Assembly (NCBI GenBank): GCA_963796285.1
Contig: CAWCKW010000012.1
Location: 896,001 to 960,000 of the forward strand
Direction: 5' to 3'
Length of the DNA stretch: 64,000 nucleotides
Source: Nitrospirota bacterium
Lineage (GTDB): Bacteria > Nitrospirota > UBA9217
Position 1 is the stretch's first letter; each line of letters begins with the position of its first letter. The notes beneath the pieces were generated by a model. That model was not told the DNA's origin. It made no database searches and saw only the letters and a program-made list of their open reading frames with translations. Shown here piece after piece: positions 15,931-56,652 of the stretch. The position numbers were made by a program, and so were the translations under genes.

Positions 15931-15989
15931 GCCGACAACGAGGGGGACACTGTCCCCCTCCTCAATTTCACAACAAAGAGAGAGGATCC

Positions 15990-16562: not shown

Positions 16563-16886
16563 ATAACCGCTATGCTTCTTTATCCGGCTTCCTGTCGAAG
16601 AATCAAAGACATCAAGATAATCTCTTGAGAAATGCCCGCCGCAGGTTCAGTGACTTGAAAATAACCTAAAATTTGAATTTTATATGTAATTCCGAGGTTG
16701 AAAAATGATTATATATGGTTTAATATCAATCATTATACGATTGCAATGGATATGGGGAAGGGACGGGTAGTGTTGACATGAACAATACAATCGTCTTTGT
16801 TCTACGGGTTCGCATCATCCCGGTTCGACGGCAGCCTATCTCATACCCGGCTTACTTGAGAGTATGCACTCTTCAGGAGCCTCGGC

Positions 16887-18671: not shown

Positions 18672-20015
18672 ATGGCAAAGATACTGGTAATAGACGATCA
18701 GGACGGAATGAGGCGAAGCCTTGTGATCCTCTTGCGGAAAGAGGGTTATGCCGTGGAAGAAGCGGAAAACGGAGAGCGTGCCATTGCTCACCTCGGGTCA
18801 GGTCAATTCGATCTTGTTATCACTGACCTGAAAATGTCGCCGGGCACGGGACTCGACGTCCTGTATTATGTCCTCGAAAGACATCCTCAGACCGACGTGA
18901 TCATCATGACGGGGTACGGTACGGTCGATTCCGCCGTTCTGGCCATGAAACTCGGGGCCTTCGATTACATCGTAAAGCCTTTTAAGAACGAAGAGATACT
19001 CCACCGGGTAAGAAAGTCCCTTGCTCATAGAGAGTCGGAACGGGAGATAGCGGTCCTGCACACAAAAAAGGACATCGAGATCTCCATCCTCGGAGACAGC
19101 GATGCAACAAAAACGCTGATCGCCATGATACGCAAGATCGCTCTAGTTGACCTGACTGCCCTTATATCCGGAGAGACGGGTACAGGAAAGAACCTCGTTG
19201 CCAAAACAGTGCACAGCCTCAGTTCCAGGAGCGGGAAACCTTTTGTGGCCATAAACTGTTCGGCCATCCCGGAACACCTGCTGGAAAGCGAGCTGTTCGG
19301 CCATGCTAAGGGAGCGTTTACCGGGGCGATCCTTGAGAGGCAGGGTTTATTTGGAGCAGCGGATGGCGGGACCCTGTTCCTCGATGAGATCGGCGCCATG
19401 CCGTATGCCATGCAGGCAAAGCTGCTCGACGTCCTGCAGGAACATACGATCCGACGGCTCGGCGAGAACAAACAGAGGACTGTGGACGTCAGGATCATCG
19501 CTGCCACGAACCGGGACCTTGAACAGGCCATTGAGGACGGCACGTTCCGGGAAGACCTCTACTACCGTATCAAAGTCACCCGAGTTCACATCCGGCCGCT
19601 CAGGGAGAAGCCTGATGATATTCCCGTCCTGACCCGGCACTTTTTAGACGACGTCAGAATCCTTCATCAAAAGCCTGATATTGACCTGTCGCCGGATGCA
19701 CTGGAATTCCTTCTTCGGTATGATTTTCCCGGGAACGTGCGTGAACTGCAGAACATCATAACCAGCGCAGCCGCACTCGCAACTGGGTCCCTGATCACGG
19801 TGCCCGATTTGTCTCTCGGGTTTACGAACCAGCTGTTTGATGTTTCCGTCGGAACGACAGGTGAGGCAAATCCCGGCACCCTGGAAGAATGGGAAAAAGA
19901 TATCATCGTGAAGAGCATCGAAAGAAACAACCATAATCTCGGAAAGGTATGCAGCGAACTGGGAACCAGCAGGACAACGCTCTGGCGTAAGATGAATAAA
20001 TACGGTATTACATGA
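18672..20015 (+). CDS. Sigma54-dependent response regulator (NtrC family)
   Basis: Receiver domain, GETGTGK, GAFTGA, FLDEI and C-terminal Fis-type HTH. Confidence 0.96.
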   Translation: MAKILVIDDQDGMRRSLVILLRKEGYAVEEAENGERAIAHLGSGQFDLVITDLKMSPGTGLDVLYYVLERHPQTDVIIMTGYGTVDSAVLAMKLGAFDYIVKPFKNEEILHRVRKSLAHRESEREIAVLHTKKDIEISILGDSDATKTLIAMIRKIALVDLTALISGETGTGKNLVAKTVHSLSSRSGKPFVAINCSAIPEHLLESELFGHAKGAFTGAILERQGLFGAADGGTLFLDEIGAMPYAMQAKLLDVLQEHTIRRLGENKQRTVDVRIIAATNRDLEQAIEDGTFREDLYYRIKVTRVHIRPLREKPDDIPVLTRHFLDDVRILHQKPDIDLSPDALEFLLRYDFPGNVRELQNIITSAAALATGSLITVPDLSLGFTNQLFDVSVGTTGEANPGTLEEWEKDIIVKSIERNNHNLGKVCSELGTSRTTLWRKMNKYGIT

Positions 20016-20019
20016 AAAC

Positions 20020-20316
20020 CTACTTGAGCCAGCCGACCAGATCTATCGTTAAATGGAAGTTCTGACCTTCTTCTTCCCGGACCATCTGGTAAAACCTGCA
20101 TTTCCGGCAATCCTCATATTTCCTGGCAAAGCTCCCCTGGGCCTCTCCACCGCACATCGTGCCCGCAATGATCCAACATACCCGGCCCGCATTTTCCCCT
20201 CCATGAGTACTGTCAAGCTTAGCGCAAGTCACGGCAGGGCATACCCCGAGCACTGCCGCATTGCTCCCTCCGGATTCTCTCCCGCACTTCATGACTTCCC
20301 AGCAGTTCTTCTTCAT
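20020..20316 (-). CDS. Small Cys-rich two-CW-domain protein
   Basis: NCWEVMKCGRE...CPA...CWIIAGTMC...CRKCRFY. Confidence 0.85.
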   Translation of the reverse strand: MKKNCWEVMKCGRESGGSNAAVLGVCPAVTCAKLDSTHGGENAGRVCWIIAGTMCGGEAQGSFARKYEDCRKCRFYQMVREEEGQNFHLTIDLVGWLK

Positions 20317-20431
20317 TTCTCAGTCCTCCGCCGGACATTTTCTTTGTGCCCCTTCTGCCGCTCATAACCGCGAACCGCTTGTGAATATTCTTTGACGCTA
20401 TATATTACCACTATAGCTTTTTAAATAAAGC

Positions 20432-20800
20432 CACATTCAGCTCTGAAATGCAACAAATGAGCGAGCGACTTTCAACGGTGTTGTGAAGTCCAGACACTTA
20501 CTGGGTCTGTTGTTGATAAGCTTCTCGATTTTCTTTATTAGCTCTTTGTCAATCTGACTGAAATCAGTGCCATTGGAAAGTAGCTTTCGAATGAGGCCGT
20601 TTATCCGCTCATTCGATCCTCGTTGCCACGCTGCAAAGGGATGGGCAAAGTAGCACGGAAAAAGCCTTTGCCTTCCAACGCATTGATGCTATGAGCTAAC
20701 GCTCTGTTTCGTTAGGATGAACATAGCTTTTTGTCATAGACACTTAGAATAGCAGATTCCTTCCTGCATACCCAAATGTTGCACTTCACAATTGAATTTG
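20432..20800 (-). mobile_element. Internally deleted IS30-family element (about 370 bp) retaining both terminal inverted repeats
   Basis: 24-bp IRs match at 19/24 (CACATTCAGCTCTGAAATGCAACA vs rc CAAATTCAATTGTGAAGTGCAACA); minus-strand remnants MTKSYVHPNETER* and YFAHPFAAWQRGSNERINGLIR...NNRPSKCLDFTTP. Confidence 0.85.
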
Positions 20801-20802
20801 CG

Positions 20803-20967
20803 TTACTTATGTGCTATCTCTTCATCATCACCGCCTTTTATCGCCTTTTTAAAGGACTGGATGCTTTTACCCAGCCCTTCGCCGAGTTGCGGCAGACGGT
20901 TTGCGCCAAAGATTACAACCACTATGACCAAAATAACCATCAATTCCGGCAGTCCTAATCCAAACAT
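20803..20967 (-). CDS. tatA: Second TatA (54 aa; not in the ORF track)
   Basis: [41 protein letters not shown]; AAGGAG RBS. Confidence 0.92.
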
Positions 20968-21035
20968 GTTTCCTCCTTAAATATGCAGGGTTTTAATGTA
21001 ATGCTATCGATCAGACTTTCATTATTTCTGTAGCA

Positions 21036-21371
21036 TCAGACTTTTTCCTCCTTCCAAAGAAGCGTACGCCAAGACTGCACGTGCTCATTCTCCGCTTGTT
21101 CATATTCCGCCACGCCTTTCGGTACAACGGTCTGTTCATGTCCAACGGCGGTGATCTCCTGGCCGATCGTCTTGAGTTCCTCAACTTGAGCGGTCTTTTC
21201 CACTTCCTTCATTTCTTCCTTTACGGAATCCTGAAACTCCTGCGAAGCCTTCTTGAACTCTGCTATGGCCCGACCGACGGACCTTCCCAGAGCCGGCAAG
21301 CGCTTGGGGCCAAACACAACTAGCGCTATCACAAAAATAACCATCAATTCCGGAATTCCGAAACCAAACAT
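21036..21371 (-). CDS. tatB: TatA/TatB family subunit
   Basis: MFGFGIPELMVIFVIALVVFGPKRLPALGRSVGRAIAEFKKA. Confidence 0.85.
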   Translation of the reverse strand: MFGFGIPELMVIFVIALVVFGPKRLPALGRSVGRAIAEFKKASQEFQDSVKEEMKEVEKTAQVEELKTIGQEITAVGHEQTVVPKGVAEYEQAENEHVQSWRTLLWKEEKV

Positions 21372-21735
21372 GATTTTCTCCAGTTTTTTCCGTTGGGCTT
21401 AGTACCATAAAAGATGGGCGAGCAGCGTTTTCCCCGCCTGTCTGCTCTATCACTACTTCCATTTGCGAATGCATTCCATGGAAAACGTTTTGCACTGTTC
21501 TCCCACACTCTTTGCGAGAGGGTAGAAAATCCTGTTTATCGCGGTGGAAACGCACCACACCGCCTGCTGAATAATGCAATCTCCTGGCCAGACTGCCAAG
21601 CTCATCGCCAGTCCCAAGAGTTAACGGCAGAACGTCGGAAACTCGCCGCGCATAGTCCATCCTACGGCATGTCACGGGACTCATAATAAATCGCTTTAAG
21701 GACAGGTGAGTGGTCCGTCATGGCGAATGTCACCT

Positions 21736-22275
21736 CTACATTCCCTCCCTGAGCACCCATTGGTTCGTTCGCGGCCGCACCCAATAAGCGCTCTCCCCTG
21801 CATCTTTACCGTCTCCGGGAGAAAAGGCACCGGTGAATGTGAGCTTATACCTGAACCGCACATTCACGTCACCCTCATGGTTTCTGTACAGGTGATGAGC
21901 CGCGGGCGATAGGGTGATGATCTCCTTTGCCTTCCATTTCCCTGCGCCGACCATGGCGAGCCCGCCGCTGTGCGCCGGTCCGCCGGCCATGCGGCGATCG
22001 AGTTCAATCCATTGACCGAGTATCTCGCTCTGCGCGGAAAAACTCGCCTCATATCCTTCCAATTCCAAGGCCCCGCCGGACCTGTTTCCTATGGCAGTTT
22101 CTACAAGATACTCGTCGTTGTTCAGATAAGTGATGTTCACAACTTCTACGGTGAGGTGGTCCGGTATCATATCTCCTGCAAAGCCGGCGCCGGTAAGGGA
22201 ACACAGAGCAACGAAGATACAGATATGGGCTGTTTTTTTTATGCCGGCGTTTAACATGCCTTGAGCAACGATCAA
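21736..22275 (-). CDS. Hypothetical exported protein
   Basis: Signal-like N-terminus; translationally coupled within the operon. Confidence 0.7.
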   Translation of the reverse strand: MIVAQGMLNAGIKKTAHICIFVALCSLTGAGFAGDMIPDHLTVEVVNITYLNNDEYLVETAIGNRSGGALELEGYEASFSAQSEILGQWIELDRRMAGGPAHSGGLAMVGAGKWKAKEIITLSPAAHHLYRNHEGDVNVRFRYKLTFTGAFSPGDGKDAGESAYWVRPRTNQWVLREGM

Positions 22276-22685
22276 CGGGCTACGTGAACAGTAAAAACTG
22301 CCGAATCATCTTTTTCGCCCTCACGCAACTTGAGGTACACATCCCAGTCTCCCGGCATGGTGAAGTTTATTCCTTCTACACGATACTGCCCTTTTCCGAG
22401 GTATGTTACCACCGCAATATCGCTCGAGCCGTGCTCCATGGCCGTCATCCAGGGTATCACATCCATGTCCAGCTTTCTTTCAATGGGCTTCATGGATTTT
22501 ATGTCGTTTATTTTGACGGTCATGTTGTTTTTGCCTACCGTTACCGGATTTGCGGCGCACTGCACATCGATCGAGTAGAATCCCTGTTCGCTATTGATTC
22601 CTTTCTGCTCGAAGGCCATCAGAAATAAACTCACGACCAGGATGGAGAAAAATCCTGTCCACCGGATCATCGCATCTCTACGCAT
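22272..22685 (-). CDS. YtkA/FixH-like exported protein
   Basis: PWMTAMEHG...GQY...FTMPGDW motif. Confidence 0.8.
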   Translation of the reverse strand: MRRDAMIRWTGFFSILVVSLFLMAFEQKGINSEQGFYSIDVQCAANPVTVGKNNMTVKINDIKSMKPIERKLDMDVIPWMTAMEHGSSDIAVVTYLGKGQYRVEGINFTMPGDWDVYLKLREGEKDDSAVFTVHVAR

Positions 22686-22703
22686 TGTTTTTTCCTCCTT
22701 CGC

Positions 22704-23330
22704 CTAATGGGGCGGCATCGGTATCATAACTGGTATCTTATTATCAGGAAATTTCACCTGCCGGGCAATTTCCCGGTCAGGCATGTAATAGGGCTTCAGA
22801 TACATATAGGCATCGGAATACCGGTCAACGACCTCTTCTTCCTTGAAGGCGCTTTCCGGCAGCACGAACAGGGAAAGACGGACACGGACGTGCATGTAAC
22901 CAAACATCTGATAATAGCTGTATTTTATAGAGCGGCTGATCGTGATAATCTTCCGGTAACGATGGACTCCCGGTTCGATTCGGATGACCTGCTCCTCCGC
23001 TTTTCGTTCGCCCTCGCTTACCGGGACTTCCGTCCAGGACATACCGGTCTGAACGTACGCAACCGCTTGCGGATAGGATATATATACAGGCTCATCTGCC
23101 AGGTTTTCTATCTTGATAACAATCTCGTATTGCCCCGGCTTTCCCTTGATGATCCGTGCGTCCTCGACGTCGGGCATGATCTGATAGAAGGCCCGTTTTT
23201 GCAGCCGCTCCTTTTTTGCCTCCTTTTCCCTGATGATGGCGGTCTCTTTCAGCCCGACCAGGTAATCAGCGGCAACGAAGAGGAGGACAACCCCGATAAG
23301 AGAGGCGACCAGTTTTCTTTTCCTGAGCAT
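22704..23330 (-). CDS. Single-TM periplasmic ABC-accessory protein, paralog A
   Basis: N-terminal TM; YMHVR; ends in IPMPPH; similar to 23384-24058. Confidence 0.75.
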   Translation of the reverse strand: MLRKRKLVASLIGVVLLFVAADYLVGLKETAIIREKEAKKERLQKRAFYQIMPDVEDARIIKGKPGQYEIVIKIENLADEPVYISYPQAVAYVQTGMSWTEVPVSEGERKAEEQVIRIEPGVHRYRKIITISRSIKYSYYQMFGYMHVRVRLSLFVLPESAFKEEEVVDRYSDAYMYLKPYYMPDREIARQVKFPDNKIPVMIPMPPH

Positions 23331-23383
23331 TTCTGTAATCTCCCCCGTCTCAATCTCCAGAACGAGCGCAGCCCGGACGTCAA

Positions 23384-24058
23384 CTAGTTCCAGTTCCTGA
23401 ACGACGATATGGGCATATAAACCGGGATCTTCGTGTCACCGAAATCTATCGCCTTAGCGATTTCCCTTTGGCTGATCCAGTAGGGTTTAAGGTAAATGTA
23501 GATATCGCTCTTCCTTTCCACGACTTCTCCCTCCTTAAAACCGCTTTCCGGAAGGACATCCATGGTTATATAGAACCGCACATGCATGTACTTCGGGATC
23601 AGGTATTTGTTGTAGGGTAAACGCTGGGAGACCGTAAGTATTTTTCTGAAAAGCAGGTGGCCTTCTGCGATCTTGTATACCTGTTCCTGTTTCTCACCGG
23701 TCTTTTCCGCCACGGGCACTTCTGTCCACGAGATGGTTCCGGTCTGAATGTAGGCCTTCACTGATGGGTGCGTCAAGTAGGCCGGCTCTTCACCGACGTT
23801 GTCTATCCGTACGAGCAGCTCATAACGTCCCGTGCGGGTGATGCCGGCCGTTTCGGTGATATCACGAACATCGACGGAAAGCATGCGAAACGCCTGCACC
23901 TCGAGGCGTTTAATCGCTGCTTCTTTCTCCCTGATAATACTTTCCTGCCAGCGCCCGACAACCATGTCAGCAAGCAGAAGGACGACAATTATTGCCGCGA
24001 CCGAAACGGCTATTTTCCTGCTTTTCAGTGCGGCGAGTATCGCAGTTCTGTTTTTCAT
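23384..24058 (-). CDS. Single-TM periplasmic ABC-accessory protein, paralog B
   Basis: Shares IIREKEA, AYIQTG..WTEVPV, YMHVR and YLKPY with paralog A. Confidence 0.75.
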   Translation of the reverse strand: MKNRTAILAALKSRKIAVSVAAIIVVLLLADMVVGRWQESIIREKEAAIKRLEVQAFRMLSVDVRDITETAGITRTGRYELLVRIDNVGEEPAYLTHPSVKAYIQTGTISWTEVPVAEKTGEKQEQVYKIAEGHLLFRKILTVSQRLPYNKYLIPKYMHVRFYITMDVLPESGFKEGEVVERKSDIYIYLKPYWISQREIAKAIDFGDTKIPVYMPISSFRNWN

Positions 24059-24087
24059 GCCTGCACCCTTTCATATCGGCGCCGGCC

Positions 24088-24831
24088 TTATGTCGGACAG
24101 ACCGGGCACAAGGAGGGCTCATCCTTTAGCAGCACGCCGTCCTTCATTTGAATGATACGGTCGGAGCTATTGGCTATCTCAAGGTCATGAGTGGAAAATA
24201 CTATGGTTATCCCCCGTTCGCGGCAAAGTCGTTTAAAGGTCTCGATAACGAACAGCCGGTTATCCCGGTCGAGATTGGCGGTCGGTTCGTCGGCAAGGAT
24301 GACTGCCGGACTGGTTATCAGCGCACGGGCAATGGCCACGCGCTGGATTTCTCCGCCGCTTAGCTGGCTCGGCATATGGTAAAGCCGGTGCCCCAGCCCC
24401 AAGGATTTGATGATCTCTATTCCGGTGTCCTTTATGTTCCCGTTGCTGTGCTTCGGTTTGAAAAAGCTGAAGGGGAGCAGGGTGTTTTCGAGCACGTTCA
24501 GCATACGCAGCGGTTTTGCGTCCTGAAATATAAAGCTGAACTTCTCTCTGCGGAACTGGACCAGTTTCTCTTCCGACAAACTGTCGATCCTGACCCCCTC
24601 CAGCAGTACCTCCCCCTGGGACGGTTTATCAAGAGCACCGATGATATTGAGAAGGGTGGTCTTGCCGGACCCGCTCGGTCCCACGAGTGCGACCAGCGTG
24701 CCCCTTCCGATACTGAGAGAAATGCCGTCGAGTGCCTTTACCTCCCCCGACGCCAGTCTGAATGCCTTGCTGACATCCCGAAGTTCCAGGAATGTTTCCC
24801 CTTCGTTGTTGTCCAAAATCACACCTCCCAC
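24088..24831 (-). CDS. ABC ATPase (LolD/MacB type) with C-terminal CPVC
   Basis: GPSGSGKT, LSGGE, LADEPT. Confidence 0.93.
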   Translation of the reverse strand: MGGVILDNNEGETFLELRDVSKAFRLASGEVKALDGISLSIGRGTLVALVGPSGSGKTTLLNIIGALDKPSQGEVLLEGVRIDSLSEEKLVQFRREKFSFIFQDAKPLRMLNVLENTLLPFSFFKPKHSNGNIKDTGIEIIKSLGLGHRLYHMPSQLSGGEIQRVAIARALITSPAVILADEPTANLDRDNRLFVIETFKRLCRERGITIVFSTHDLEIANSSDRIIQMKDGVLLKDEPSLCPVCPT

Positions 24832-26009
24832 TGGGATCTGAAGCTGTCGGATATTTTTATCCCCGACAGCTTGTAGGTCGGGTAAAAACCGGCCACCAAA
24901 CTGCAGAGAATACCGGAAGCGACAGCAGCAAAAAACACCGTGAGGCTAAACCGGACGCCTGCGCCAAGGTTCAGAACAAAGGAATCGAGGACGTAGGTCA
25001 TGAACATGCCGATCGGATAACCCACGATACCGGCCGCAAGGCCCATCGCGGAGTACTCGCCGAGAAGAACGAGAAGCAGCTGCGACCGCGATGCGCCCAC
25101 GGTCTTCAGCAGGCCAATCTCCCTGATGCGGGAATAGAGAACACTCGTAACGATATTGAAGATAGCGAATATGCTGATGAACACCGTTGCGGCTACGATG
25201 GAAAGAAGAAATTTGAAGGTTTTCTTGAGAAAGATATACTTCATCGTGCTGAACTGCTGGGGTACGAGGGTCTTGACATCAGGAATGGTGCTGTTCAATT
25301 CAGTGACAACATCGCGCAGGAGGTCCCGGTCCCGGTCAAGGGAAACATTCTGCACATTTACGAGCGACACGAAACCTTTTTTATCGGAAAGGGCCTGGAG
25401 AACCCTGAATGGGACAAAAACCATATAATCGTCGGAGACGTTATAATTTTCAAGGATACCCGCAACCGTAAAGGCCCTGCCGTCCACCGAGATTACCGCA
25501 TTCTCCGAGAGATTGTTCGCGCGGGCAAAAGTCCCGCCTATCACAGCCTCCCCTTCTCCCGTCGGCCATTGCCCGCTCGCCAGACTCCAGGACGGTTTGG
25601 CCGCCCGTTCGGATTGAAAATCGATACCGGCGACGACCGTACTGACGGAAGACTTCCGGATCACGGCATCCGTCCGCTGGTATATACGCGGCGCGATGAT
25701 AATCGCTTCTTGCTTGTTCCCTGTCCTTCTCCTGACAATCCCCTCAATTGACTCAATGACGGTCTCCGGCAGGAACTCATCAATCACCACACCGATCTGA
25801 TCGATCCGTTCGACCTTGATGTTCTTCGGCTGCACAGTCATGGTAAAGCCGAATTTCAAGGCGAGGGTTGCGAGGGACCTGTCCGCGTTGTCGACCGTCA
25901 GCAGGATCGTACTGAGAATAACCACAGGAATAAGCATGGCGGTCAGCAGATATACGCTTTTCCCCTTTCTCCGCGTTATGTCTTTAGTCGCGAGCGACAA
26001 TAAGTTCAC
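24819..26009 (-). CDS. MacB/FtsX-type ABC permease
   Basis: 4-TM topology; RIREIGLLKTVGAS. Confidence 0.9.
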   Translation of the reverse strand: MNLLSLATKDITRRKGKSVYLLTAMLIPVVILSTILLTVDNADRSLATLALKFGFTMTVQPKNIKVERIDQIGVVIDEFLPETVIESIEGIVRRRTGNKQEAIIIAPRIYQRTDAVIRKSSVSTVVAGIDFQSERAAKPSWSLASGQWPTGEGEAVIGGTFARANNLSENAVISVDGRAFTVAGILENYNVSDDYMVFVPFRVLQALSDKKGFVSLVNVQNVSLDRDRDLLRDVVTELNSTIPDVKTLVPQQFSTMKYIFLKKTFKFLLSIVAATVFISIFAIFNIVTSVLYSRIREIGLLKTVGASRSQLLLVLLGEYSAMGLAAGIVGYPIGMFMTYVLDSFVLNLGAGVRFSLTVFFAAVASGILCSLVAGFYPTYKLSGIKISDSFRSQWEV

Positions 26010-27467
26010 CTAAACCTCCCACTCGGTTCGAAACGTTTCCGTGATTTTTATGCCCGACAGTTTATATGCCGGGTAATAAATGGCGAGGAGGCTGCAAATA
26101 ATGCCGAGAGTCAGTGCGTGCCATAGCACGCCAACCTCGACCCGGACGACAGCTCCAATACCGAGGAACGTATTCATGATATGCGCCATGCCGACACCCG
26201 CCGCAAATCCGCCGAGCCCCGCAATGATCCCGATTATAAGATGTTCGTACAGAAATATCCTGAGAAGCTGAAAACGCGATGCGCCGACCGCCTTGAGCAG
26301 GCCGACCTCCCGCGCCCGCGCGTACAGAGAGCCGGCGACAATGTTGAAGATCGAAAAGATACCCACAGCGATGGTGGCAACCACGACTGCCAACAGGAAG
26401 CGATACAGCATATTAAAAAAGTCGTACTGCAAGCCAGCGACGTCGAGCTGGGAGACCGCGGTAATGCCAGTGATGTTCTTGTTCAGCTCCACCATGGCGT
26501 CTCCAACGGGGCAGTTAGGGCACATGGCCCTGACGCTCAGCAGCGATATAAATCCTTCCTTGTGAAACATTTTCTGGGCCGTCAGCAACGGAATGAAGAC
26601 CATATAATCATCGGCGGAGTTCGTTTCCTCCAGGACGCCCATGACCTTGAATTGCCGCGATGCAACCGTCATGGTATCTCCGACTTTCAGTCCCCTGGCG
26701 GCAGCATACCCCCCCCCGAGATAGGCATCGTTTCTGGTCTCATCGGCAGCTCCATGCCCATAGGCAAAATGGCGCAGCTTATCGTCTGATGACCCGGCAG
26801 CGTTGCCATGTTGGCCGTCATCGTATACGGTCTTCCCCTGTTCATCAAGCCGGTATTTCGGCTTCTTCACGGTTACCTGTCCGTCGCGCCCCATGACATA
26901 CATGGCATCGATCTTCGTATCGACATTCTTAACATCCACATCTTGCGGCCACTCGCCGCTGGACAAGGTCCACCAGAAACGGACGAAATATTCCTTGCTG
27001 ATATCGATTCCCGTAACGATAGCCTCATGACCGTCCACCACCGCCTTCACGTAGAGCCGGGGCGCCCAGGTCGGCGGTTCGATGCTCGTGTCTGGGATTC
27101 CCGGGTTGCTTACCAGCCCGCCTTTCCGTTGCCATCCCTCCCTAATTGCCTTGTCATATGTCTTTGAAATCTCCTGCACCGCCGACTCGGGTATATATTT
27201 ACCGAAAACCACCTCCGAAATGGTGAGGTTCTGCAGTGCACTCTTGTCCACCTCGTCGATAGCGGCGGTTATGACGGGACGAACGGTCAGCGTATGACCT
27301 GTCTTTGTGATCACTTCCAGAATGTTTGACGTCGCCGAAGTGCTTACGATCGAAAGCGAAGACAGGAGCGCAACGGATATGACGATCGCAAAGACGATCA
27401 GCCCGCTCTTTTTCGGCCTTCGCATCAGGTCAAGTAGCGCAAATTTCAGGATGGTCATGGCTTGCAA
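26010..27467 (-). CDS. MacB/FtsX-type ABC permease with periplasmic CPNCP motif
   Basis: RAREVGLLKAVGAS; AMCPNCP; His-containing insertion. Confidence 0.9.
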   Translation of the reverse strand: MQAMTILKFALLDLMRRPKKSGLIVFAIVISVALLSSLSIVSTSATSNILEVITKTGHTLTVRPVITAAIDEVDKSALQNLTISEVVFGKYIPESAVQEISKTYDKAIREGWQRKGGLVSNPGIPDTSIEPPTWAPRLYVKAVVDGHEAIVTGIDISKEYFVRFWWTLSSGEWPQDVDVKNVDTKIDAMYVMGRDGQVTVKKPKYRLDEQGKTVYDDGQHGNAAGSSDDKLRHFAYGHGAADETRNDAYLGGGYAAARGLKVGDTMTVASRQFKVMGVLEETNSADDYMVFIPLLTAQKMFHKEGFISLLSVRAMCPNCPVGDAMVELNKNITGITAVSQLDVAGLQYDFFNMLYRFLLAVVVATIAVGIFSIFNIVAGSLYARAREVGLLKAVGASRFQLLRIFLYEHLIIGIIAGLGGFAAGVGMAHIMNTFLGIGAVVRVEVGVLWHALTLGIICSLLAIYYPAYKLSGIKITETFRTEWEV

Positions 27468-28186
27468 ATCTTTCCCATCAAGGCTTCAACGGGATCTGCT
27501 ACATCCCGATACAAGAACCCGTCCTTCATGACGACAACAGTCTTAGCAGATTCGAGCCAGGTGAGGCTGTGGCTCACAACGATTATGGTTTTTTTGTATT
27601 GCGTGTTGATCATCCGGAAGATGTCAATGACCTCCTGCTCCGTTCTGATATCGAGTTCGCCGGTCGGCTCGTCGGCAAGGATAATATCGGGGTCGTTTAT
27701 GAGCGCACGCGCAATGGCCACCCGCCGCTGTTCCCCCCCCGACAGTTCCGAAGGATATGACTCGATCTTTTTCTTCATGTCGAGGCCCTCGAGGATGGAT
27801 ATCGCACGATCTCGGACGACATCCGTATCGCGGTCCCCGTTCTTGTTGAATATCACAGGCATAACGACATTGTTGAGGACGTTCAGCGTCGACAGCAGGC
27901 TGAAGGACTGGAATACAAAACCGATCTTGCGGTTCCTCAGGATGGAAAGTTCCCGGTCGTTGAGTTTCCAGATGTCAACGCCATCGATTGATACGGTCCC
28001 CTCGGTTGGTTTCGTAAGCCCACCGATGGTGCTGATGAGCGTGGTCTTACCTGATCCCGAATGGCCCATAAAGACCACGAAATCAGACGAAGGAATGTCG
28101 AGATCGATGCCCTTCAGGGCCTCAACGCGCTGATCGCCCAGATTATAGATCTTCTTTAGAGCACGAGTCCGAATGAAGTCTGCCAT
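27455..28186 (-). CDS. ABC ATPase (LolD/MacB type)
   Basis: GHSGSGKT, LSGGE, LADEPTG. Confidence 0.93.
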   Translation of the reverse strand: MADFIRTRALKKIYNLGDQRVEALKGIDLDIPSSDFVVFMGHSGSGKTTLISTIGGLTKPTEGTVSIDGVDIWKLNDRELSILRNRKIGFVFQSFSLLSTLNVLNNVVMPVIFNKNGDRDTDVVRDRAISILEGLDMKKKIESYPSELSGGEQRRVAIARALINDPDIILADEPTGELDIRTEQEVIDIFRMINTQYKKTIIVVSHSLTWLESAKTVVVMKDGFLYRDVADPVEALMGKICKP

Positions 28187-28187
28187 G

Positions 28188-29402
28188 TCATAACCCCTGC
28201 TTCATAGTTTCGTGAGGATCTATCCTCACGGCGAGGATGGCCGGATACATCGACCCGCTTACCCCCATGATAAGAGCCACCCCGATCGCTCCCACCATCA
28301 TTGATGCGATCATTTCGAAGGGCGGCAGCATAAACGGTATGTTGAGCAGGTTCAGGTAAAAGATAATCGACCGTTGGAACAGTTTCAGGAGAACTCCCCC
28401 GATGACCATGCCCATAAAGCCGCTGATGATGCTGATCAGGGTCGACTCATAAAGAATGAGCATGAATATATTGGCTTTCGTAGCCCCGATAGCCCTGATA
28501 ATGCCGATTTCTCTTTTGCGTTCATTCACAACAGCGGAGAATATGGCATTAATCATAAGGACATTGGAAAGAATGAGGACAACGATGAGCACGATGATGC
28601 CAAAAAATACGGCGACCGTCGTCTGACGAGCCGAGGTCGCGATATTTCCCGTGGTCACCACCTTCAGACTGGGATTATCCTTCAGGATCGAAAATGTGAT
28701 GAACGGGATCTTTGCCCCTACGTCGAGTTGGACCAATCCGCCGGATATCCTGTTTCTCAGCGGCGCAAGAGGCTTCACCAAGGAATCGCTCTGCGACTTC
28801 TCGGACATTTCATAGGCCCGGTCGATATTGAAAAAAACGGCGTTATCGTACAATCCGATCCCGGTCCGTTCGAGCTTGGCCCATACTTTCAAACGAACAC
28901 CGTAGAATTTAAGGCCGTCCTCCAGATTCCAGGGCGTCATTGCGCCGACAATCGCTCCATCGGGCGGGAACGGTTCCTTTGCGCTCTTGTCCACCCACGG
29001 CATCACGGTGAAATCATCTTTGGGATTGAAACCAATGAGAAATGAATTTCCCATGACGCAGCAATCTCCCGTTGCACTGGTCAGAAAAATCTGTCCCGAT
29101 ACCTTCTTAACGCCCTTCAGCACCCGTATCTTGTCGAGCACTGCGCTGTCCATATAAAAGGCGGAAGGCTCTCCCGTCAGGAGCGCCGACTTGAGATTTA
29201 CCAGGGATTCCTTGGGAATTACGAGCAGGTCAGCCCCGAGTTTCGAGAGGCCCTGGTTAAGAGTGTGGTTGATCCCCATAATCAGGATAGAACTTGCAAA
29301 GAACGCCCCGATGACAATGCTAACGCTGACCAGAATGATGTAGAAACGCAGATGTTTCACCTGTAGATTCTGATAAGCAAGTCCAAAGAGAGACCTGATC
29401 AT
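28188..29402 (-). CDS. MacB/FtsX-type ABC permease with periplasmic CC motif
   Basis: GADLLV, GDCCV and ERKREIGIIRAIGA. Confidence 0.9.
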   Translation of the reverse strand: MIRSLFGLAYQNLQVKHLRFYIILVSVSIVIGAFFASSILIMGINHTLNQGLSKLGADLLVIPKESLVNLKSALLTGEPSAFYMDSAVLDKIRVLKGVKKVSGQIFLTSATGDCCVMGNSFLIGFNPKDDFTVMPWVDKSAKEPFPPDGAIVGAMTPWNLEDGLKFYGVRLKVWAKLERTGIGLYDNAVFFNIDRAYEMSEKSQSDSLVKPLAPLRNRISGGLVQLDVGAKIPFITFSILKDNPSLKVVTTGNIATSARQTTVAVFFGIIVLIVVLILSNVLMINAIFSAVVNERKREIGIIRAIGATKANIFMLILYESTLISIISGFMGMVIGGVLLKLFQRSIIFYLNLLNIPFMLPPFEMIASMMVGAIGVALIMGVSGSMYPAILAVRIDPHETMKQGL

Positions 29403-29457
29403 GTTTAATCTCCCATGGTCGCGGGATATATGGTCGCGCCATCGTGCATCGGGCCTT

Positions 29458-29496
29458 AAACCCCTTGATGGGGAGCTAGTCTTCCATCAAGGGGTT
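29458..29496 (-). terminator. 14-bp hairpin between tcdh and the ABC genes (leaky terminator or mRNA stabiliser)
   Basis: AAACCCCTTGATGG...CCATCAAGGGGTTT. Confidence 0.7.
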
Positions 29497-29532
29497 TTCG
29501 ACATTCCGCGCGGGTCGCCCGCGAATAGTTTG

Positions 29533-31071
29533 CTAAGTGGTAGGGCACCTTGAAAACGCTAGACCGGCAACCGATTTTGGTACGATGACGGAATCGTGGC
29601 TGCCGTAAGGGCTCGGCAGATAACCATAAAATTTGTCATCCTTGACACGGACCACGTAGGTCCCGGTCTTGGTCTTCTGATAACCACTGAACACGCCGAA
29701 CAGCCATTTCCCGTCATCGGTGATCGCGATTGTGTGCGTGTCCGGTCCTATATCTATGGTCTTGGTAATTTTCCAAGTCTTGGTGTCGATAGCGGCAATG
29801 CCGTTCGTGCTCGGGGATGGCCACCAGAGCGTGACATACATCTTGCTGCCATCGGGCGTAAAGCACATGTGGAACGGATTAGGATAAGCACCGCGCCAGC
29901 TGGGATCTCCGACTCCCGCAATTCTTCTCCAACTCGTAGGATCTGACTGATTGCTCGAATCGAAGACCGCCATAATGTTCTCCCGGCTGTTGTTCATGAG
30001 GATAAAACGGTTTCCGTCGGGACTGAAGCCCGCCTGATGTGCCGGCGTGGGAACATTCTTAAAGACAGCCTTCCATTCCCCGTTGCCTACTTTCTGTACC
30101 GGTACCTGGAAGCCCTGCTTGGCATGCTTATCGGATCCCACGCAGATGGCTTTCGGTTCCCACGTGGTCGTATCGAAAACGACGCCGCATCCGGGGAGGC
30201 GGAGGGCTGCAATAGCATAGTTCTTGTGGTTCGGATCCCAGCAAAGGGAGTCGAGGGCGACGAGGTTCTTCAGCCGGGGGCCGGGCACTTTCCCCTGCTC
30301 AGCGAAAAGTTCACCGCCGGGAACAAGCTCCCAGTCAGTCTTGCATCCCTTGGTCCCTTTCAGGTCGTAGGGGGCATGAAGCTTTTTGATGGTGAGCGTT
30401 CCCCCGTCCAACCAAACCCGCGAAAGTTCCGAATTGTTATACTCCCAGTCAAAGAGGACTGCGGCCTCCACGGTAGAATGACCCGCGCCTTCACCCTTCT
30501 TGAATACCGCCATGATGTCCTTCTGGCCGTCACACACGGAGAACCGTTTGTTATCCGGCGCCACAGTGACGTGCACACCAAGGCCGATGCCCGTAGTTTC
30601 CGCAACGTCTTCCAGGACGTTCATCTTGGTGCCATCGTAATTGCATCTCCAGATATTGAACCCTTCTGCGGGGTCCTTCACGGGTGTGGTCACACCGTAG
30701 ATATACAGGTTTTTCCCCCCCTGGGAATCGACGATCCACTCGAATTCCTTGTAGGGGTCTGGAGAAGCAAATGCGGCGAGATGGTGAACGATGGGTGTTT
30801 TATTTCCGGCCCATATGCTCATATTCATCGAGGCAAGACATTGACCGGTCGACATATCATGGGCGGCGACGCCGCCGGCGAACTTGCCCGGGACCAGATG
30901 AATGTATTTCCCGATCTGGTCGTAGACATCCTGGAACGTAGGGTCCCCGAATATGCCGGCTTCAGCGGTGTTGGGTGACATGCCAACTCTTATGGAACCC
31001 ATTTTGGATGCCAAACCGGCTGCTGCACTTGCAATACCAAACTTGAATAAACCGCGTCTCGTTAGTTTCAT
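29533..31071 (-). CDS. tcdh: Thiocyanate dehydrogenase (TcDH) homolog, Tat-exported tri-copper beta-propeller
   Basis: TRRGLFK Tat motif; runs matching recalled Thioalkalivibrio TcDH: PGKF, HH.AAF.SPDPYKEFE, QGGKN, GLGVHVT, DGQKD, DWELVPGGEL, HQAGFSPDG, WRGAYPN.FHM, WWPSP, GPD.HT, SGYQ, LPSP.G.HD. Confidence 0.9.
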   Translation of the reverse strand: MKLTRRGLFKFGIASAAAGLASKMGSIRVGMSPNTAEAGIFGDPTFQDVYDQIGKYIHLVPGKFAGGVAAHDMSTGQCLASMNMSIWAGNKTPIVHHLAAFASPDPYKEFEWIVDSQGGKNLYIYGVTTPVKDPAEGFNIWRCNYDGTKMNVLEDVAETTGIGLGVHVTVAPDNKRFSVCDGQKDIMAVFKKGEGAGHSTVEAAVLFDWEYNNSELSRVWLDGGTLTIKKLHAPYDLKGTKGCKTDWELVPGGELFAEQGKVPGPRLKNLVALDSLCWDPNHKNYAIAALRLPGCGVVFDTTTWEPKAICVGSDKHAKQGFQVPVQKVGNGEWKAVFKNVPTPAHQAGFSPDGNRFILMNNSRENIMAVFDSSNQSDPTSWRRIAGVGDPSWRGAYPNPFHMCFTPDGSKMYVTLWWPSPSTNGIAAIDTKTWKITKTIDIGPDTHTIAITDDGKWLFGVFSGYQKTKTGTYVVRVKDDKFYGYLPSPYGSHDSVIVPKSVAGLAFSRCPTT

Positions 31072-31165
31072 TTTACGCTCCTTTTGTCTGTTATTTTATT
31101 TTAGATCCCGCCCTGATGAATCACTACGTTAAGCACCCCTTTTCGCCTCCTCTCATGCTCAAGAT

Positions 31166-31291
31166 AGCAAAACGCATGCCCAACCATGCCTATTTTCAAC
31201 TAACTGATTTATTGGAATCCCTAGAATGGAACGCACAGACTATATTTTCAAAGTGAAACATTGAAATGAAGGTGGTTTTCCAATGTGAAAC
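31166..31291 (-). promoter_or_regulatory. Sigma54 promoter of the tcdh operon with IHF site and two enhancer palindromes
   Basis: TGGGCATGCGTTTTGCT (GG-N10-GC) at 31166-31182; AATCAGTTAGTTG at 31197-31209; TTTCA-N3-TGAAAC at 31246 and TTCCA-N3-TGAAAC at 31278. Confidence 0.8.
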
Positions 31292-31615
31292 GTTTTTTGC
31301 CGATAAAGCTTACATTATAATATTGTGTTGACACTGCCTGGAATGACGGACATCTGAGCATCGGCTATGAATACAATGACAACCATGACGATGCGACTGT
31401 CGGCATGGGTCCCTCCAAACTTATGACTCTGATATGGTAGACAGTGTCAGGATCAGCAAACCTGCATTCCGCACTGTTATCTTATGTACTCATGAAAGTG
31501 ATCATTGCAATCATTGAACAATCGCATGCTTCCACCCTTCATGGCCTGGTTTATGCCGCGCATTTTTTACGAAACTTCGAGAAGCGATGTGAAAACGTAT
31601 AATTATAATTTTACA

Positions 31616-31644
31616 TTGACAAGCTTTTTTGTTCGCCTTATATT
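31616..31644 (+). promoter_or_regulatory. Sigma70 promoter giving a leaderless transcript
   Basis: TTGACA-17 nt-TATATT; predicted +1 falls on the ATG at 31651. Confidence 0.7.
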
Positions 31645-31650
31645 GCAAAC

Positions 31651-34574: not shown

Positions 34575-35121
34575 TATGCGTTGGCTAATACAGTTGCTGA
34601 TTCCGATCTTTCTTGCGGGATGCGGCGGCATGATGGATGATCTTAATCCGTCTAACATCGACAAACAGGCGACCGTTCAAGCAGGTACCGTGGGGCCCGC
34701 TGTTGGCCAGAATGCTCCGGATTTCACGCTTTCCGACACCCTCGGGACCAGCGTCACGCTCTCGTCCGTGCTTACCGGGACTGCCGTGAACGGCGTTGTT
34801 CTGTACTTCACCATGTGGTGCCCGACCTGCGACATACATATGAGCAGCATGCGAAGTTCCCAGATCCCGATGTTTCCGAATGTGCGTTTTTACGCTGTCG
34901 ATTATGTGTCAAGCACAGTTGCTGATGCCAGGAATTCAGAGCTATCGAACGGGTATGAAGGATCCGGATTCATTGTTCTGGCGGATACGGTTCAGACAGT
35001 ACTGAATCTTTACCATGGCACAATGGGGACCACTGTTGTCATTGACAAAACGGGTATCATACGGATGAACGAGGATTATAAGGACGATAGATTGACGGCA
35101 GCGCTCACGAGTTTACCGTGA
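34561..35121 (+). CDS. Redoxin (TlpA/peroxiredoxin-like) lipoprotein
   Basis: Lipobox LAGC; APDFTL; MWCPTC. Confidence 0.87.
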   Translation: MGSANMRWLIQLLIPIFLAGCGGMMDDLNPSNIDKQATVQAGTVGPAVGQNAPDFTLSDTLGTSVTLSSVLTGTAVNGVVLYFTMWCPTCDIHMSSMRSSQIPMFPNVRFYAVDYVSSTVADARNSELSNGYEGSGFIVLADTVQTVLNLYHGTMGTTVVIDKTGIIRMNEDYKDDRLTAALTSLP

Positions 35122-35153
35122 CCGGGGCACTCAATACAACTAAGGAGCAATTC

Positions 35154-35621
35154 ATGTTGAAACGAAGATTTGCCATCATCGCTGTACTCACCGTGGTTCT
35201 GGTCGGTATGGCTGAAATGAATGTCCTGGCCCAGGACGATATTGATGCTCACCGCTCCTGTGCCAGCTGCGGCATGGACAGGAAAGCCTACGGATACAGC
35301 CGTATGCTGATCCAGTATGAGGACGGGGCCATGGTAGGCACCTGCAGCCTGCATTGTGCCGTTGTCAAGCTTGATGCAAACCAAGGGCGGACGGTGAAAT
35401 CCCTTCTCGTCGCCGACAGGGACTCCCGGACGCTGATCGATGTTGAGCATGCGATCTGGGTCATGGGAGGTGGAAAGCGCGGTGTCATGACGCAACAGCC
35501 TACGTGGGCCTTCCAGTCAAAGGCAGGCGCTGAAGCGTTCATGAAGGCGAACGGAGGGAAGATGGTCACCTGGGCCGAAGCCCTCGCTGCTGCCAGGGAG
35601 GAGCTGGTCCAGAAGCATTGA
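35154..35621 (+). CDS. NosL-family copper-binding protein
   Basis: CASCGM, CSLHC, GVM...AF...AEAF...GG. Confidence 0.87.
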   Translation: MLKRRFAIIAVLTVVLVGMAEMNVLAQDDIDAHRSCASCGMDRKAYGYSRMLIQYEDGAMVGTCSLHCAVVKLDANQGRTVKSLLVADRDSRTLIDVEHAIWVMGGGKRGVMTQQPTWAFQSKAGAEAFMKANGGKMVTWAEALAAAREELVQKH

Positions 35622-35738
35622 CAGATTCTATATCAGCCCCGTAAGCTGTTAGACACCGCTTTTAATGAAAGCGCAGGCACCTGCAACTATGTTGTTGATT
35701 CATCGGGAAGTTGTGTCTTTTATCAAGTTAGTGTATGA

Positions 35739-35766
35739 TTGACGTAAATAAAATAAGCGCTATAAT
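35739..35766 (+). promoter_or_regulatory. Sigma70 promoter for the copCD unit
   Basis: TTGACG-16 nt-TATAAT. Confidence 0.6.
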
Positions 35767-35828
35767 AAAATTCAAGCAATAGAAGAATGTTGAACGTTAT
35801 TAATTTATAGGAGGAACATAAGCGTCGT

Positions 35829-36801
35829 GTGAAGAGTTCAATTGTGAGATTGCTGGCAGCAAGCTGTTCTGTTTCAGTCTTATAATGATCATCGCATCGA
35901 TCCCGTCAACTTCATTCGCCCATGGGGTCGCGGGACAACGGTTTTTCCCCACGACCTTTGCCGTGGATGATCCATTCATTTCTGATGAGTTTTCCGTGCT
36001 GTATCAATTCGATAAAGATGAACGATGACGCGGGCGGGCCGCAGCGTTCGGACTTCGTCATTTGATGTCGGATATTCCAAGCGCATCCTGCCCAACTTCG
36101 GGATTGAGGTCGCTGAATCGTACCAGCGCCTGCACACCGAGGGCGACGGCACTGTCAGCGGCTATGGCAACCTCGAAGTGAATGCAAAATATCAGTTCTA
36201 CACGAGCGCTTCAACATGAAACGATCATTTCTTTGGTGTGTCGGACGAAATCGGACAATACCGGTTCCAGCAAAGATCGGCTCGGAGTCCTTCTCCGACA
36301 ATTTCGCCCGCGCTTCTATTTTCGGCAAAGGGTTCGGCGACCTGCCCGACTCAATGCAATTACTTGAAGCCTCTCGCGATCACCGGGGTCATCGGTCCGA
36401 ACTTCCCTTCGCAGAAACAAACGATCACCGTAAACGCGGACACAGGTGACATAGATGTGGAACGTCATCCGACCACGCTGACGTGGGCGTTCTCTCTACA
36501 GTACAGCCTGATGTATCTCCAGTCGGCGGTAAAGGACGTGGGGCTTGGCGCTCCCTTCAACCGGATGGTCGCGGTCGTCGAATTTCCGATGGAGACGTGC
36601 CTGAACACGGACTGCAAAAATCAGACGACCGGGACCGTAAACCCGGGGATCGCCTGGATCGGCAAATATACGGAGTTGGGCATTGCCGCGGAGATCCCGA
36701 TGAACCCGCGTTCAGGAGCGGGTACCGGGGTCTTCGTCCTTTTTCACCTCTTTATCGATGACCTGTTCCCGAAGAGCATAGGGAGACCGATATTCCCGTG
36801 A
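35829..36801 (+). CDS. Putative outer-membrane protein of the CopCD-associated type (several frameshifts)
   Basis: Mature N-terminus HGVAGQRFFPTTFAVDDP; beta-strand pattern; ends HLFIDDLFPKSIGRPIF. Confidence 0.65.
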
Positions 36802-37184
36802 AAATATCTGCACAATCACTCACTATCCGGACTTCATCCGCTCTTCTGTTCACGGTGTTCCTCCTAATAATGCCGAACGCAGCGCGAGGCCATGCGTACC
36901 CGGACCACGCAGATCCCAAGGTAGGAGCGACGATCAACACCTCTCCCGACCGCGTGCGCATATGGTTTGACAGCGATCTGGAACCGGACTTTTCCACGAT
37001 CATGGTCCATAATGCGGAAAACACGATGGTGAGCAACAGGGACAGCCGCGTAAATCCGTCAGATGCGACACTTCTTGAGGTGAGTGTGCCGCGGCTGCCT
37101 CCGGGCAAATATCGCGTCATCTGGAGCGTCGTGGCAAGGGACGGGCACCTTACTCAGGGTGACTATACATTCTCTATCAGATGA
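36798..37184 (+). CDS. copC: Periplasmic copper-binding protein CopC
   Basis: Mature His1 (HAY), PD.VRIWF and YRVIWSVVARDGH. Confidence 0.92.
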   Translation: MKISAQSLTIRTSSALLFTVFLLIMPNAARGHAYPDHADPKVGATINTSPDRVRIWFDSDLEPDFSTIMVHNAENTMVSNRDSRVNPSDATLLEVSVPRLPPGKYRVIWSVVARDGHLTQGDYTFSIR

Positions 37185-38979
37185 CTTTCTTTATTCACAT
37201 CATTCCCGAATGGCTCGAACTCGCCGCCCTGACCTTCTGCATCGGGCTGCTTGGTTGCCGTCTCTGGGTCTCTACCCGGTCAGCGAACGCCGGGTTTATT
37301 GAACAAGAACATATCCTTGACAATATACGGCGTCTGCTCGGCGTCTGCATGGCCTTAATGTTCTTCGGCAGCGGTGTCAATTTGATCTGGCGCGCCGCGG
37401 AGATGAGCGGCCGTCCACTCTCGACAATTTTGCCCGTGCTCCCGAGGGTGATATTTCATACCCATCTCGGAGGCGCCTGGTTTATTCGCATCGTGGCACT
37501 TGTCCTTTTGTCGCTTACGCTCCTGGCGGGCCGGCGGCTCCGTAATGCGCGCGGAATTACAGGTTTCATGCTCTGCATCGCCGTCATCATCGCTATGACC
37601 GAAAGCGCATCAGGACACGCCTCGGATAAAGGCGACTTCAGCATCCTTGAAATAACGGATTTTTCCCACCTCCTCGCCGCCAGCGCTTGGGGAGGCGGGC
37701 TCTTGGCCTTGTCCCTGGTTATTCTTCCAAATTTGGCAAGGGCAGGCGATCAATCAGCAGCGCTGATAGCGGACATTGCCTGCAGATTTTCCAGGATAGC
37801 GGGCATCGCCGTCGGGATCATCGCGATTACAGCGCTCTACAACGCGTGGGCATTCGTTGGGAGTTTCGAATCGATCTGGACGTCGCCCTACGGTTGGACG
37901 GTGTTTGCCAAAGTAATTCTCTTTTCCCTCCTCATTTCCCTCGGCGCATTCAATCGGTACGTCAGCGTTCCCCTGTTGCTGGAATGGGGAGGGACTTCCC
38001 GCGCATCACGGGGCATGATTACTCGCGCTGCAAGCCATTTGTTTTCTCGATATTTCCATAATCCAGATGGACTCCAGATCGCGTTAAGATTCAAACGGAA
38101 CGTAAAGGTCGAGGCGATGCTTATGCTCGGGGTGCTCCTGTGCGCCGCCATGCTCCGCCACGAAATCCCCGCTCTCCATCATTCCCATATTGAACATGAA
38201 AGGCAGCGACATGCGGCCAAGGGACCAACGCCGGTTGTCAGCTTTGAGACAGAGCCTTCAAAGATAACTGCCCAGACCCCCGTGACGATGACGGTCCGCA
38301 TGAAAGATCCGGACGGAAGGCCGCTGCAAGGACTTGAGGTCTCCCACGAACGGATACTCCATGCAATTATCGTCGGCCAGGACATGAGGACCTTTGCGCA
38401 TATCCACCCCGAGGATGCGGGGCCGATCACCCGTGAGATGATGAAAAAGGCGGACTTCCCACTCCACTTCACATTTCCGAAGGCCGGGGAATATCTTGTC
38501 GGCGCCGACTTTTTTGCGGGAGATGAATTTTACAGCAGGATGTTTCACCTCTCTGTTTCTGGCAAGCCGGCAATGGAAGGGCCAACGACGGATTTCTCGA
38601 CGAGAAAGAATTTCGGCGAATACAGGGTCACCATGTCAGCTTCCCCGGCGAATATCAAGGCGGGCGAGGAAACGTCGCTCAGTTATATCATTGAAAAGAA
38701 CGAGAAGACGGTTACGGACCTCAATCCCTACCTGGGCGCAGCGATGCACATTGCTGTCGTCTCCGTAGACCTCAAACAGTATATTCACGTTCACGGGTCC
38801 GTTCCCGGCGAGCCCCATGATCACCAGGACCATATGCATACCAAAGCCCCCTAAAAAGTTCGGCCCGGAGATAGAGGCCGACGTCGTCTTTCCCGTCAAA
38901 GGGGATCTATACGATATTTAGTCAGGTAAAACACCGCGACAAGGTACTTCTCTTCGATTTTATGGTGAATGTACAGTGA
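37181..38979 (+). CDS. copD: CopD copper membrane protein fused to two His-rich periplasmic domains (frameshift near 38850)
   Basis: SGHA, HLLAASAWGGGL, RFS and YG..FAK; then HERILH, HIHP, YLGAAMH and HVHG. Confidence 0.85.
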
Positions 38980-54627: not shown

Positions 54628-54672
54628 AATCACCGGCATTTATGTATTGCTCGAACAGAGGAGGAACACCAA

Positions 54673-55656: not shown

Positions 55657-55665
55657 CATACAACA

Positions 55666-56583: not shown

Positions 56584-56652
56584 TACATCAACGTGAGATT
56601 CAAATCTCACACGATCTTTGAGAGCGTTAATAGATTCAGACTTTTTCAATCT

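Follow-up and report, generated by a model that had tools for sequence, protein, structure and literature searches.

Work on thiocyanate dehydrogenase (TcDH) has so far centred on aerobic sulfur-oxidising bacteria of soda lakes and waste reactors. The initial annotation of a 64,000-nucleotide stretch of a Nitrospirota genome (GTDB lineage UBA9217; the whole stretch analysed is called the window) described a TcDH homolog with an intact copper site in an anaerobe-like host. This raises the question of whether the protein is a genuine TcDH, how its gene reached this lineage, and to which acceptor its electrons would pass. Published sources are cited here for those parts of their text that were available.

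A TcDH ortholog with the complete active-site set

The tcdh reading frame (29533..31071, minus strand, ATG start) encodes a 512-aa TcDH ortholog predicted to be Tat-exported. As the initial annotation had stated, the frame is present at this length and its N-terminus (MKLTRRGLFKF) is of the twin-arginine type (TRRGLFK motif, read by eye in the translation); all nine motifs quoted there were also found. When PDB sequences were searched with phmmer, 9 of the 11 matches were TcDH (E 4.4e-175 to 5e-155), and the remaining two had E values of 3.5e-13 and 2e-4. The best match was Pelomicrobium pmTcDH (E 4.4e-175), and Thioalkalivibrio paradoxus TcDH was matched at 7e-158.

Thirteen residues of the TcDH active site are listed in the available text of PMC6504805: K103, H135, H136, Q156, H206, E288, D314, H381, H437, H482, H528, D529 and R544. 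Alignment showed that all 13 are kept in the window protein, as K63, H96, H97, Q117, H167, E248, D274, H345, H401, H446, H492, D493 and R508. The numbering was verified on P0070, a 548-aa Thioalkalivibrio-type homolog that has every residue at its published number. The earlier assignment of motifs to the active site therefore held for the set as a whole, but not for the glutamate: the Glu288 equivalent is E248 in DWELVP, and the Glu of the GGEL motif, also invariant, is position 294. Beyond the 13, the Y164, P291 and F436 positions are likewise kept, and Tyr164 sits on the modelled electron path of TcDH (PMC9456337). The His527 position, outside the 13, is Ser in the window protein and His in its 20 closest homologs.

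The AlphaFold model of the protein (pLDDT 90.4) was superimposable on the seven-bladed beta-propeller of solved TcDH (Foldseek TM 0.88, rmsd 1.3–2.0 Å), whereas other beta-propeller folds gave a TM of about 0.5 or below. Together with the 13 of 13 site residues, this bears out the claim of a TcDH homolog with an intact copper-ligand set. Membership in the NosZ, NirS or hydrazine synthase beta-propellers was ruled out (22.6 bits against a cut-off of 560; TM under 0.5 at 10–13% identity). A Pfam search of the protein gave zero matches and NCBIfam only a sub-threshold one; Nitrospirota tcdh genes are annotated as hypothetical because neither collection has a model that names TcDH.

The closest solved relative, pmTcDH (Pelomicrobium methylotrophicum; PDB 8Q9X, 8Q9Y and 8Z75), shares 55–56% identity (E 4e-175), the same propeller (TM 0.88) and the site residues with the window protein. 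It comes from another host phylum, whereas the window TcDH belongs to a separate long-branch clade with T435P and loop changes. The TcDH of T. paradoxus and T. thiocyanoxidans (PDB 5F75; available text of PMC5328954 and PMC5744179) shares 51% identity, all 13 site residues and the Tat motif. A TcDH-like subfamily with Gln in place of His482 makes up 44 of the 120 homologs listed, some of them named thiocyanate desulfurase by JGI. Its members are 41–48% identical to the window protein, keep the other ligands and also have Pro at position 435, but they lack His482, which the window protein keeps as His446, so that it falls outside this subfamily. Many of these H482Q proteins (P0075, P0078, P0080–P0121) are ~600 aa long, and some are encoded in very large clusters.

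Of the features expected of a TcDH, the site residues, the propeller fold, the twin-arginine motif with a nearby tatA gene and the cluster layout were found. An adjacent cytochrome c552 or FccAB, an accessory feature that does not define the enzyme, is missing. We conclude that the window protein is a genuine member of the TcDH family, by its residues, fold, signal motif and operon. It very probably oxidises thiocyanate.

The tcdh cluster and its promoter

Recurrence of the operon was counted over 12 related loci, three contigs of which end early. On the minus strand with tcdh lie genes for FtsX/MacB-type ABC permease A (28188..29402; 11 of 12 loci), LolD-like ABC ATPase A (27455..28186), permeases B (26010..27467) and C (24819..26009) of the same type, and LolD-like ATPase B (24088..24831); the last four were recognised by family matches and also occur in related loci. 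They are followed by genes for two membrane-anchored proteins of no known family, with one TM helix each, of 224 aa (23384..24058) and 208 aa (22704..23330), and for a YtkA-like exported protein (22272..22685, family match), each found in 9 of 12 loci. An Atlas search with the 224-aa protein returned unnamed clusters below 0.9 only. Next come an exported 179-aa protein of no known family that ends in LREGM (21736..22275; 7 of 12), a TatA/TatB-family subunit (21036..21371, family matches), a 54-aa TatA (20803..20967; a native tatA-like gene also lies near 13.7 kb), and a two-CW-domain Cys-rich protein (20020..20316; NF045718 above cut-off; 8 of 12). The plus strand encodes a sigma-54-dependent response regulator with GAFTGA (18672..20015; 8 of 12) and a histidine kinase with ~7 TM helices (16887..18671, weak MASE3 match). 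All operon reading frames from 21736 to 31071 are open.

The island that holds these genes encodes no CxxCH protein, fccAB was not found within it, and no cytochrome c is conserved beside the Tat-clade loci. Native copper-handling genes (NosL-like, CopC and CopD; 35118..38854, plus strand) lie beside the island but outside it, and are present in congeners without tcdh. In locus L001, whose TcDH is 89% identical, a cyanase gene on the tcdh strand lies 1.1 kb upstream; it is the sole one among the 14 carrier genomes, and cyanase was not found in the other 13. Directly upstream of tcdh in another locus (L009:498-5400), a large Cas9-like ORF, a Cas1-like ORF and repeat-like sequence were read by eye.

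An exported pentaheme cytochrome and an exported rhodanese-like protein are encoded at 14668-16562, patchy in the genus (G004, G006) and at the same insertion hot spot after mobA. As parts of the system they were rejected: they lie outside the island, occur in G004 and G006 without tcdh, and are not beside tcdh in the other loci read.

The Thioalkalivibrio cluster, as described in the available text of PMC5328954, resembles that of the window: tcdh is followed by ABC subunits, membrane-anchored hypothetical proteins, tatA and a sigma-54 two-component pair. The genes of that cluster are induced by thiocyanate (logFC 1.6–7.5; PMC5744179). As far as that part of the literature goes, the window cluster differs in having three permeases rather than two, in adding the YtkA-like, LREGM and two-CW proteins, in a convergent regulator pair on the strand opposite to tcdh, in lacking fccAB and cytochrome c552 within the island, and in having copCD outside it. 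A further clade of Nitrospirota TcDH with Sec-type signal peptides (for example G033, G367 and P0022–P0068) has the same site residues and operon, but is 52–58% identical and has no RR motif; the Sec-type carrier G033 has a diheme cytochrome c directly upstream of tcdh.

A sigma-54 (−24/−12) promoter-like site, GG-N10-GC, lies at 31167..31181 (minus strand), 109 nt before the ATG. The exact pattern occurs in 9 of 13 tcdh upstream regions, and GGC-N7-TTG is found at the aligned place in 12 of 13. Since the window holds no more such patterns than chance predicts (49 seen, 59 expected), support for the site comes from its positional conservation. Two palindromic TTTCA-N3-TGAAA boxes (31246-31258 and 31278-31290, minus strand) form a candidate activator-binding enhancer. 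The pair is present in 12 of the 13 upstream regions, 80–110 nt above the promoter site, and was found once in the whole host genome, at tcdh; rpoN is present in that genome. Between promoter and enhancer lies an IHF-like site (31197..31209, minus strand), called with the IHF consensus and partly conserved upstream of tcdh. We infer that the palindrome pair is probably the enhancer of the TcDH regulator; being conserved, it offers a ready candidate binding site. In locus L056 (5300-5840, genome G233) the tcdh promoter, the enhancer and the initial ~45 codons occur again in decayed form, placed before a tatA and the kinase gene; this duplicate is a relic of island rearrangement.

By analogy with Thioalkalivibrio, the presence of thiocyanate would cause the kinase/regulator pair to act on the paired palindromes and so switch on the sigma-54 promoter, and the extra TatA subunits would aid export of TcDH. 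Together with the exported and the membrane-anchored proteins, the ABC complex of MacB/LolCDE type may mature TcDH (copper loading) or clear its product, and the neighbouring CopCD/NosL-like genes could feed the copper.

Transfer and distribution of the island

The whole ~14.9-kb block (16686..31590, edges approximate, genes on both strands) is an island, because it is absent at the same site in two congeners. In G004 the flanks (window positions 16606 and 31598) are 137 bp apart with no island between them, and mobA and the 31651 ORF are immediate neighbours in G008. A weak empty-site joint (16685 to 31766, with 20 letters on the short side) was also seen in the public run X1. Both edges carry a weak, imperfect AT-rich repeat of ~35 bp. 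The GC profile gave no island signature, and within the window no tRNA was found and no integrase was seen.

The island operon is 94.1% identical over 9063 bp to that of locus L005, from another genus. At fourfold-degenerate sites the identity is 0.85–0.94 for the operon, compared with 0.43 for rpoB and 0.46–0.55 for four housekeeping genes on the same contig; relA reaches 0.88 against the nearest congener. Since the operon so far exceeds rpoB across genera, the island was transferred horizontally, and recently, between Nitrospirota genera. That the two genera have lately exchanged DNA is also indicated by a transposase-like gene (L005:6541-7086), which lies upstream of the sister island by 3 kb and is 92.7% identical to a segment of the host genome (G000 C13:80540-81101). 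The island is also a mosaic (16869-22699): from tcdh to the 208-aa gene it is 94% identical to G233, and the kinase, regulator, YtkA-like and LREGM genes are 75–82% identical.

TcDH (E below 1e-20) has a patchy distribution: within the genus 1 genome in 9 has it, within the family 5 in 64, and across the phylum sample 9 in 401. The carriers belong to the host family and to Thermodesulfovibrionales-like lineages. Public runs with a fifth or more of the operon words (9 rows from 6 studies) bear the labels peat, soil, sediment and wetland; 11 rows with a small share of the words were left aside. The four runs examined more closely carry operon pieces 87–100% identical, and X1 or X2 may be the source sample. 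There were no RNA runs among the 21 listed public runs with operon words.

Electron acceptors, alternative readings and biological meaning

The host genome (G000; 3.58 Mb, 96% complete, 5% contaminated) is that of a Nitrospirota bacterium, in keeping with the Nitrospirota/delta-like look proposed for it: all 12 related loci are titled Nitrospirota, Nitrospirae, Thermodesulfovibrionales or Ca. Sulfobium, and its RpoB is 90–95% identical to three Nitrospirota of the same family and 63–65% to Ca. Sulfobium and Thermodesulfovibrionales. We infer that it belongs to class UBA9217, whose description in the available text of PMC11033732 and PMC10591310 its traits fit. The mqnA-type (VitK2_biosynth) gene, the FmdE gene and the two c-di-GMP-I riboswitches on which the proposal had rested are all in the window. 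The two riboswitches (54536-58855) score identically, and each precedes one copy of a duplicated Big_2 lipoprotein gene, the two copies sharing their N-terminus.

The dsrAB genes of G000 are frameshifted (the N-part of DsrA is 72% and DsrB 59% identical to Ca. Sulfobium). The genome also has dsrC, dsrMKJOP, DsrE/F/H-like genes, aprA, acetyl-CoA synthase and SorAB-like genes; this reductive-type Dsr with Wood-Ljungdahl contrasts with the rDsr/Sox and Calvin cycle of Thioalkalivibrio (available text). A DsrD-like 78-aa ORF follows dsrB (L067:9743-9979, G000 C13) in a dsr cluster that also holds the DsrE/F/H-like genes. The G000 copy itself matches nothing, but its orthologs in G061 and G063 match DsrD at E 0.003–0.005, and the reading that DsrD is absent (0 of 20 over the Pfam cut-off) was rejected on these matches. 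So divergent an ORF may bear on published counts of these lineages as lacking dsrD.

An A-type caa3 operon is present in G000, with ctaD (C12:1264366-1265959) covered over its full length but in three frames. It has 14 gap openings in 1.6 kb relative to a congener and is intact in relatives; the break may mark a pseudogene and not an error of sequencing. G000 further has cNOR (NorBC; frame open for 365 aa), qNOR and an HAO-like octaheme protein. With the queries used, narG, napA, nirK, nrfA, ccoN (cbb3), soxB and cyanase were not found in G000; its nirS and nosZ searches were run without a positive control. The suggested check for cyanase and terminal reductases thus turned up the frameshifted caa3 operon, cNOR and qNOR, but no cyanase. 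An A-type oxidase subunit I was matched in 12 of 15 TcDH-carrying Nitrospirota genomes. Since 3 of 5 congeners without tcdh match as well, the oxidases are not tied to the island. A ccoN-like gene occurs in four close carriers, and SoxB is above cut-off in 3 of the 15. On its predicted gene content, the host is not simply a strict anaerobe, with caa3 (frameshifted) and NO reductases beside DsrAB, AprA and acetyl-CoA synthase. A strict-anaerobe reading is therefore unsupported, and the unexpected redox niche of the initial annotation is weakened.

TcDH converts SCN− and H2O to OCN−, S0, 2H+ and 2e−, and its native acceptor in Thioalkalivibrio is at the cytochrome-c level (Em +162 mV; available text of PMC9456337). 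A predicted periplasmic trinuclear-copper TcDH would carry out this oxidation to cyanate and S0 in the window host, and electrons would leave it at the cytochrome-c level, most likely to the caa3 oxidase under micro-oxic conditions. Electrons at such a potential cannot be taken up by sulfate or sulfite reduction, so O2 via caa3 or NO via cNOR would be needed. The S0 would enter the Dsr/Apr/Sor sulfur metabolism of the host, and the cyanate would be released or hydrolysed without an enzyme. The island itself is an accessory unit that has moved horizontally among Nitrospirota.

A regulated TcDH island that oxidises SCN− and passes electrons to O2 via caa3 under micro-oxic conditions is the best explanation, to which we assign a probability of about 0.6. 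It is favoured by the 13 of 13 residues, the fold, the Thioalkalivibrio-like cluster, the L001 cyanase, the promoter/enhancer in 12 of 13 regions, rpoN, an oxidase in 12 of 15 carriers, the potential of the acceptor, the narG, napA, nirK and nrfA queries that found nothing in G000, and the empty site with the 94% cross-genus identity. Against it stand ctaD in three frames, no cbb3 or SoxB found in G000, oxidases in non-carriers, the lack of cytochrome c and fccAB in the island, cyanase not found in 13 of 14 carriers, and the long branch (0.38) with T435P. The broken ctaD and the missing cytochrome gene are the weak points of the micro-oxic route. Residue conservation, moreover, is not always confirmed by assay, since purified TcDH of Thiohalobacter FOKN1 had no activity in vitro (available text of PMC6934394).

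The alternative that best survives, though unlikely, is SCN− oxidation without oxygen, with electrons passing to a cytochrome-c-dependent NO reductase or an octaheme cytochrome. The open cNOR frame beside a broken ctaD, the qNOR, the HAO-like protein and NorB-sized heme-copper matches in most carriers speak for it, as does a TcDH-using culture that degraded SCN− anoxically with nitrite. Nitrite did not support growth of that culture, however (PMC6934394, available text), and with the narG, napA, nirK and nrfA queries G000 showed no reductase for nitrate or nitrite that could supply NO.

The family tree bears on a slightly less probable reading, that the Tat-type clade of Nitrospirota now acts on a different small substrate containing S or Se, with its copper site kept. 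A search of representatives gave 99 matches at 1e-30, mostly fragments. In a FastTree of 105 rows, from which 33 His482Gln proteins were left out, the Tat-type Nitrospirota TcDH form one clade (support 1.0, stem 0.38), sister to the Sec-type clade with its Nitrospirota members (support 0.98) and separate from the Thioalkalivibrio-containing group. About 30 positions are fixed differently from proteobacterial TcDH, among them T435P, which adjoins F436/H437 near the active site, T169P, a shortened loop and a clade-specific Cys78. This long branch, the habitat labels (peat, soil, sediment and wetland, not thiocyanate waste) and the rarity of cyanase among the carriers would fit a changed substrate. 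The 13 residues with Y164, P291 and F436, the whole accessory cluster and the cyanase upstream of tcdh in L001 argue for thiocyanate, and cyanase is uncommon in known TcDH users too (PMC6934394, available text).

Detoxification, or scavenging of nitrogen or sulfur with little energy gain, appears improbable. The patchy spread of TcDH in genus, family and phylum, the lack of Sox in G000 and the ammonia that the L001 cyanase would release are in its favour, but a 15-kb, copper-demanding, regulated system matches lithotrophic users (PMC5328954 and PMC5744179, available text), and no cyanase was found in G000. An assembly or binning artefact, or silent cargo, for which the 5% contamination and many frameshifts of G000 could be cited, is largely refuted: the island is inside a 2.06-Mb contig with flanks 90–94% identical to G004, its operon frames are open, a contig of run X1 (possibly the source sample) spans the left edge (16526-16974) while others cover most of the island, and the neighbours of the sister island on the G233 contig have diverged as far as its rpoB has.

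In the literature covered, as far as its text was available, TcDH was not found reported for Nitrospirota, although the homolog list of Tikhonova 2020 (PNAS, PMC7071890) may include members of the phylum. The TcDH papers within this scope do not name Nitrospirota, and thiocyanate is unmentioned in the available text of two Nitrospirota genomics papers (including PMC11033732). That TcDH would be unexpected outside aerobic Proteobacteria stands insofar as its occurrence in Nitrospirota was found unreported, but precedents exist: a homolog in Hydrogenobacter (PMC5328954), an anoxic reactor in which a Thiohalobacteraceae MAG transcribed tcdh (bioRxiv 2021.08.31.458400), the anoxic SCN− removal cited above and a distant homolog in Afipia (PMC8061750). 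As far as their available text goes, these lower the surprise of a Nitrospirota TcDH. The enzyme chemistry is already known and the lineage is new as far as literature was found; the island, its cross-genus transfer and the promoter/enhancer are added here.

The presence of a recently transferred, intact and regulated island in a lineage with Dsr and Wood-Ljungdahl suggests that natural wet soils select for the use of thiocyanate. Tentatively, sulfate-reducer-like Nitrospirota of peat, wetland and sediment may trade a thiocyanate-inducible TcDH island and use natural SCN− as a donor at the oxic-anoxic boundary, with the sulfur entering a 'reductive' Dsr run backwards or disproportionation. Substrate, promoter and marker gene together give a handle for enriching this uncultured group and for testing the direction of its sulfur metabolism. 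If thiocyanate-driven oxidation is true, it (i) would be an overlooked natural sink for thiocyanate; and (ii) would provide a defined substrate to test whether the lineage switches between sulfur reduction and oxidation.
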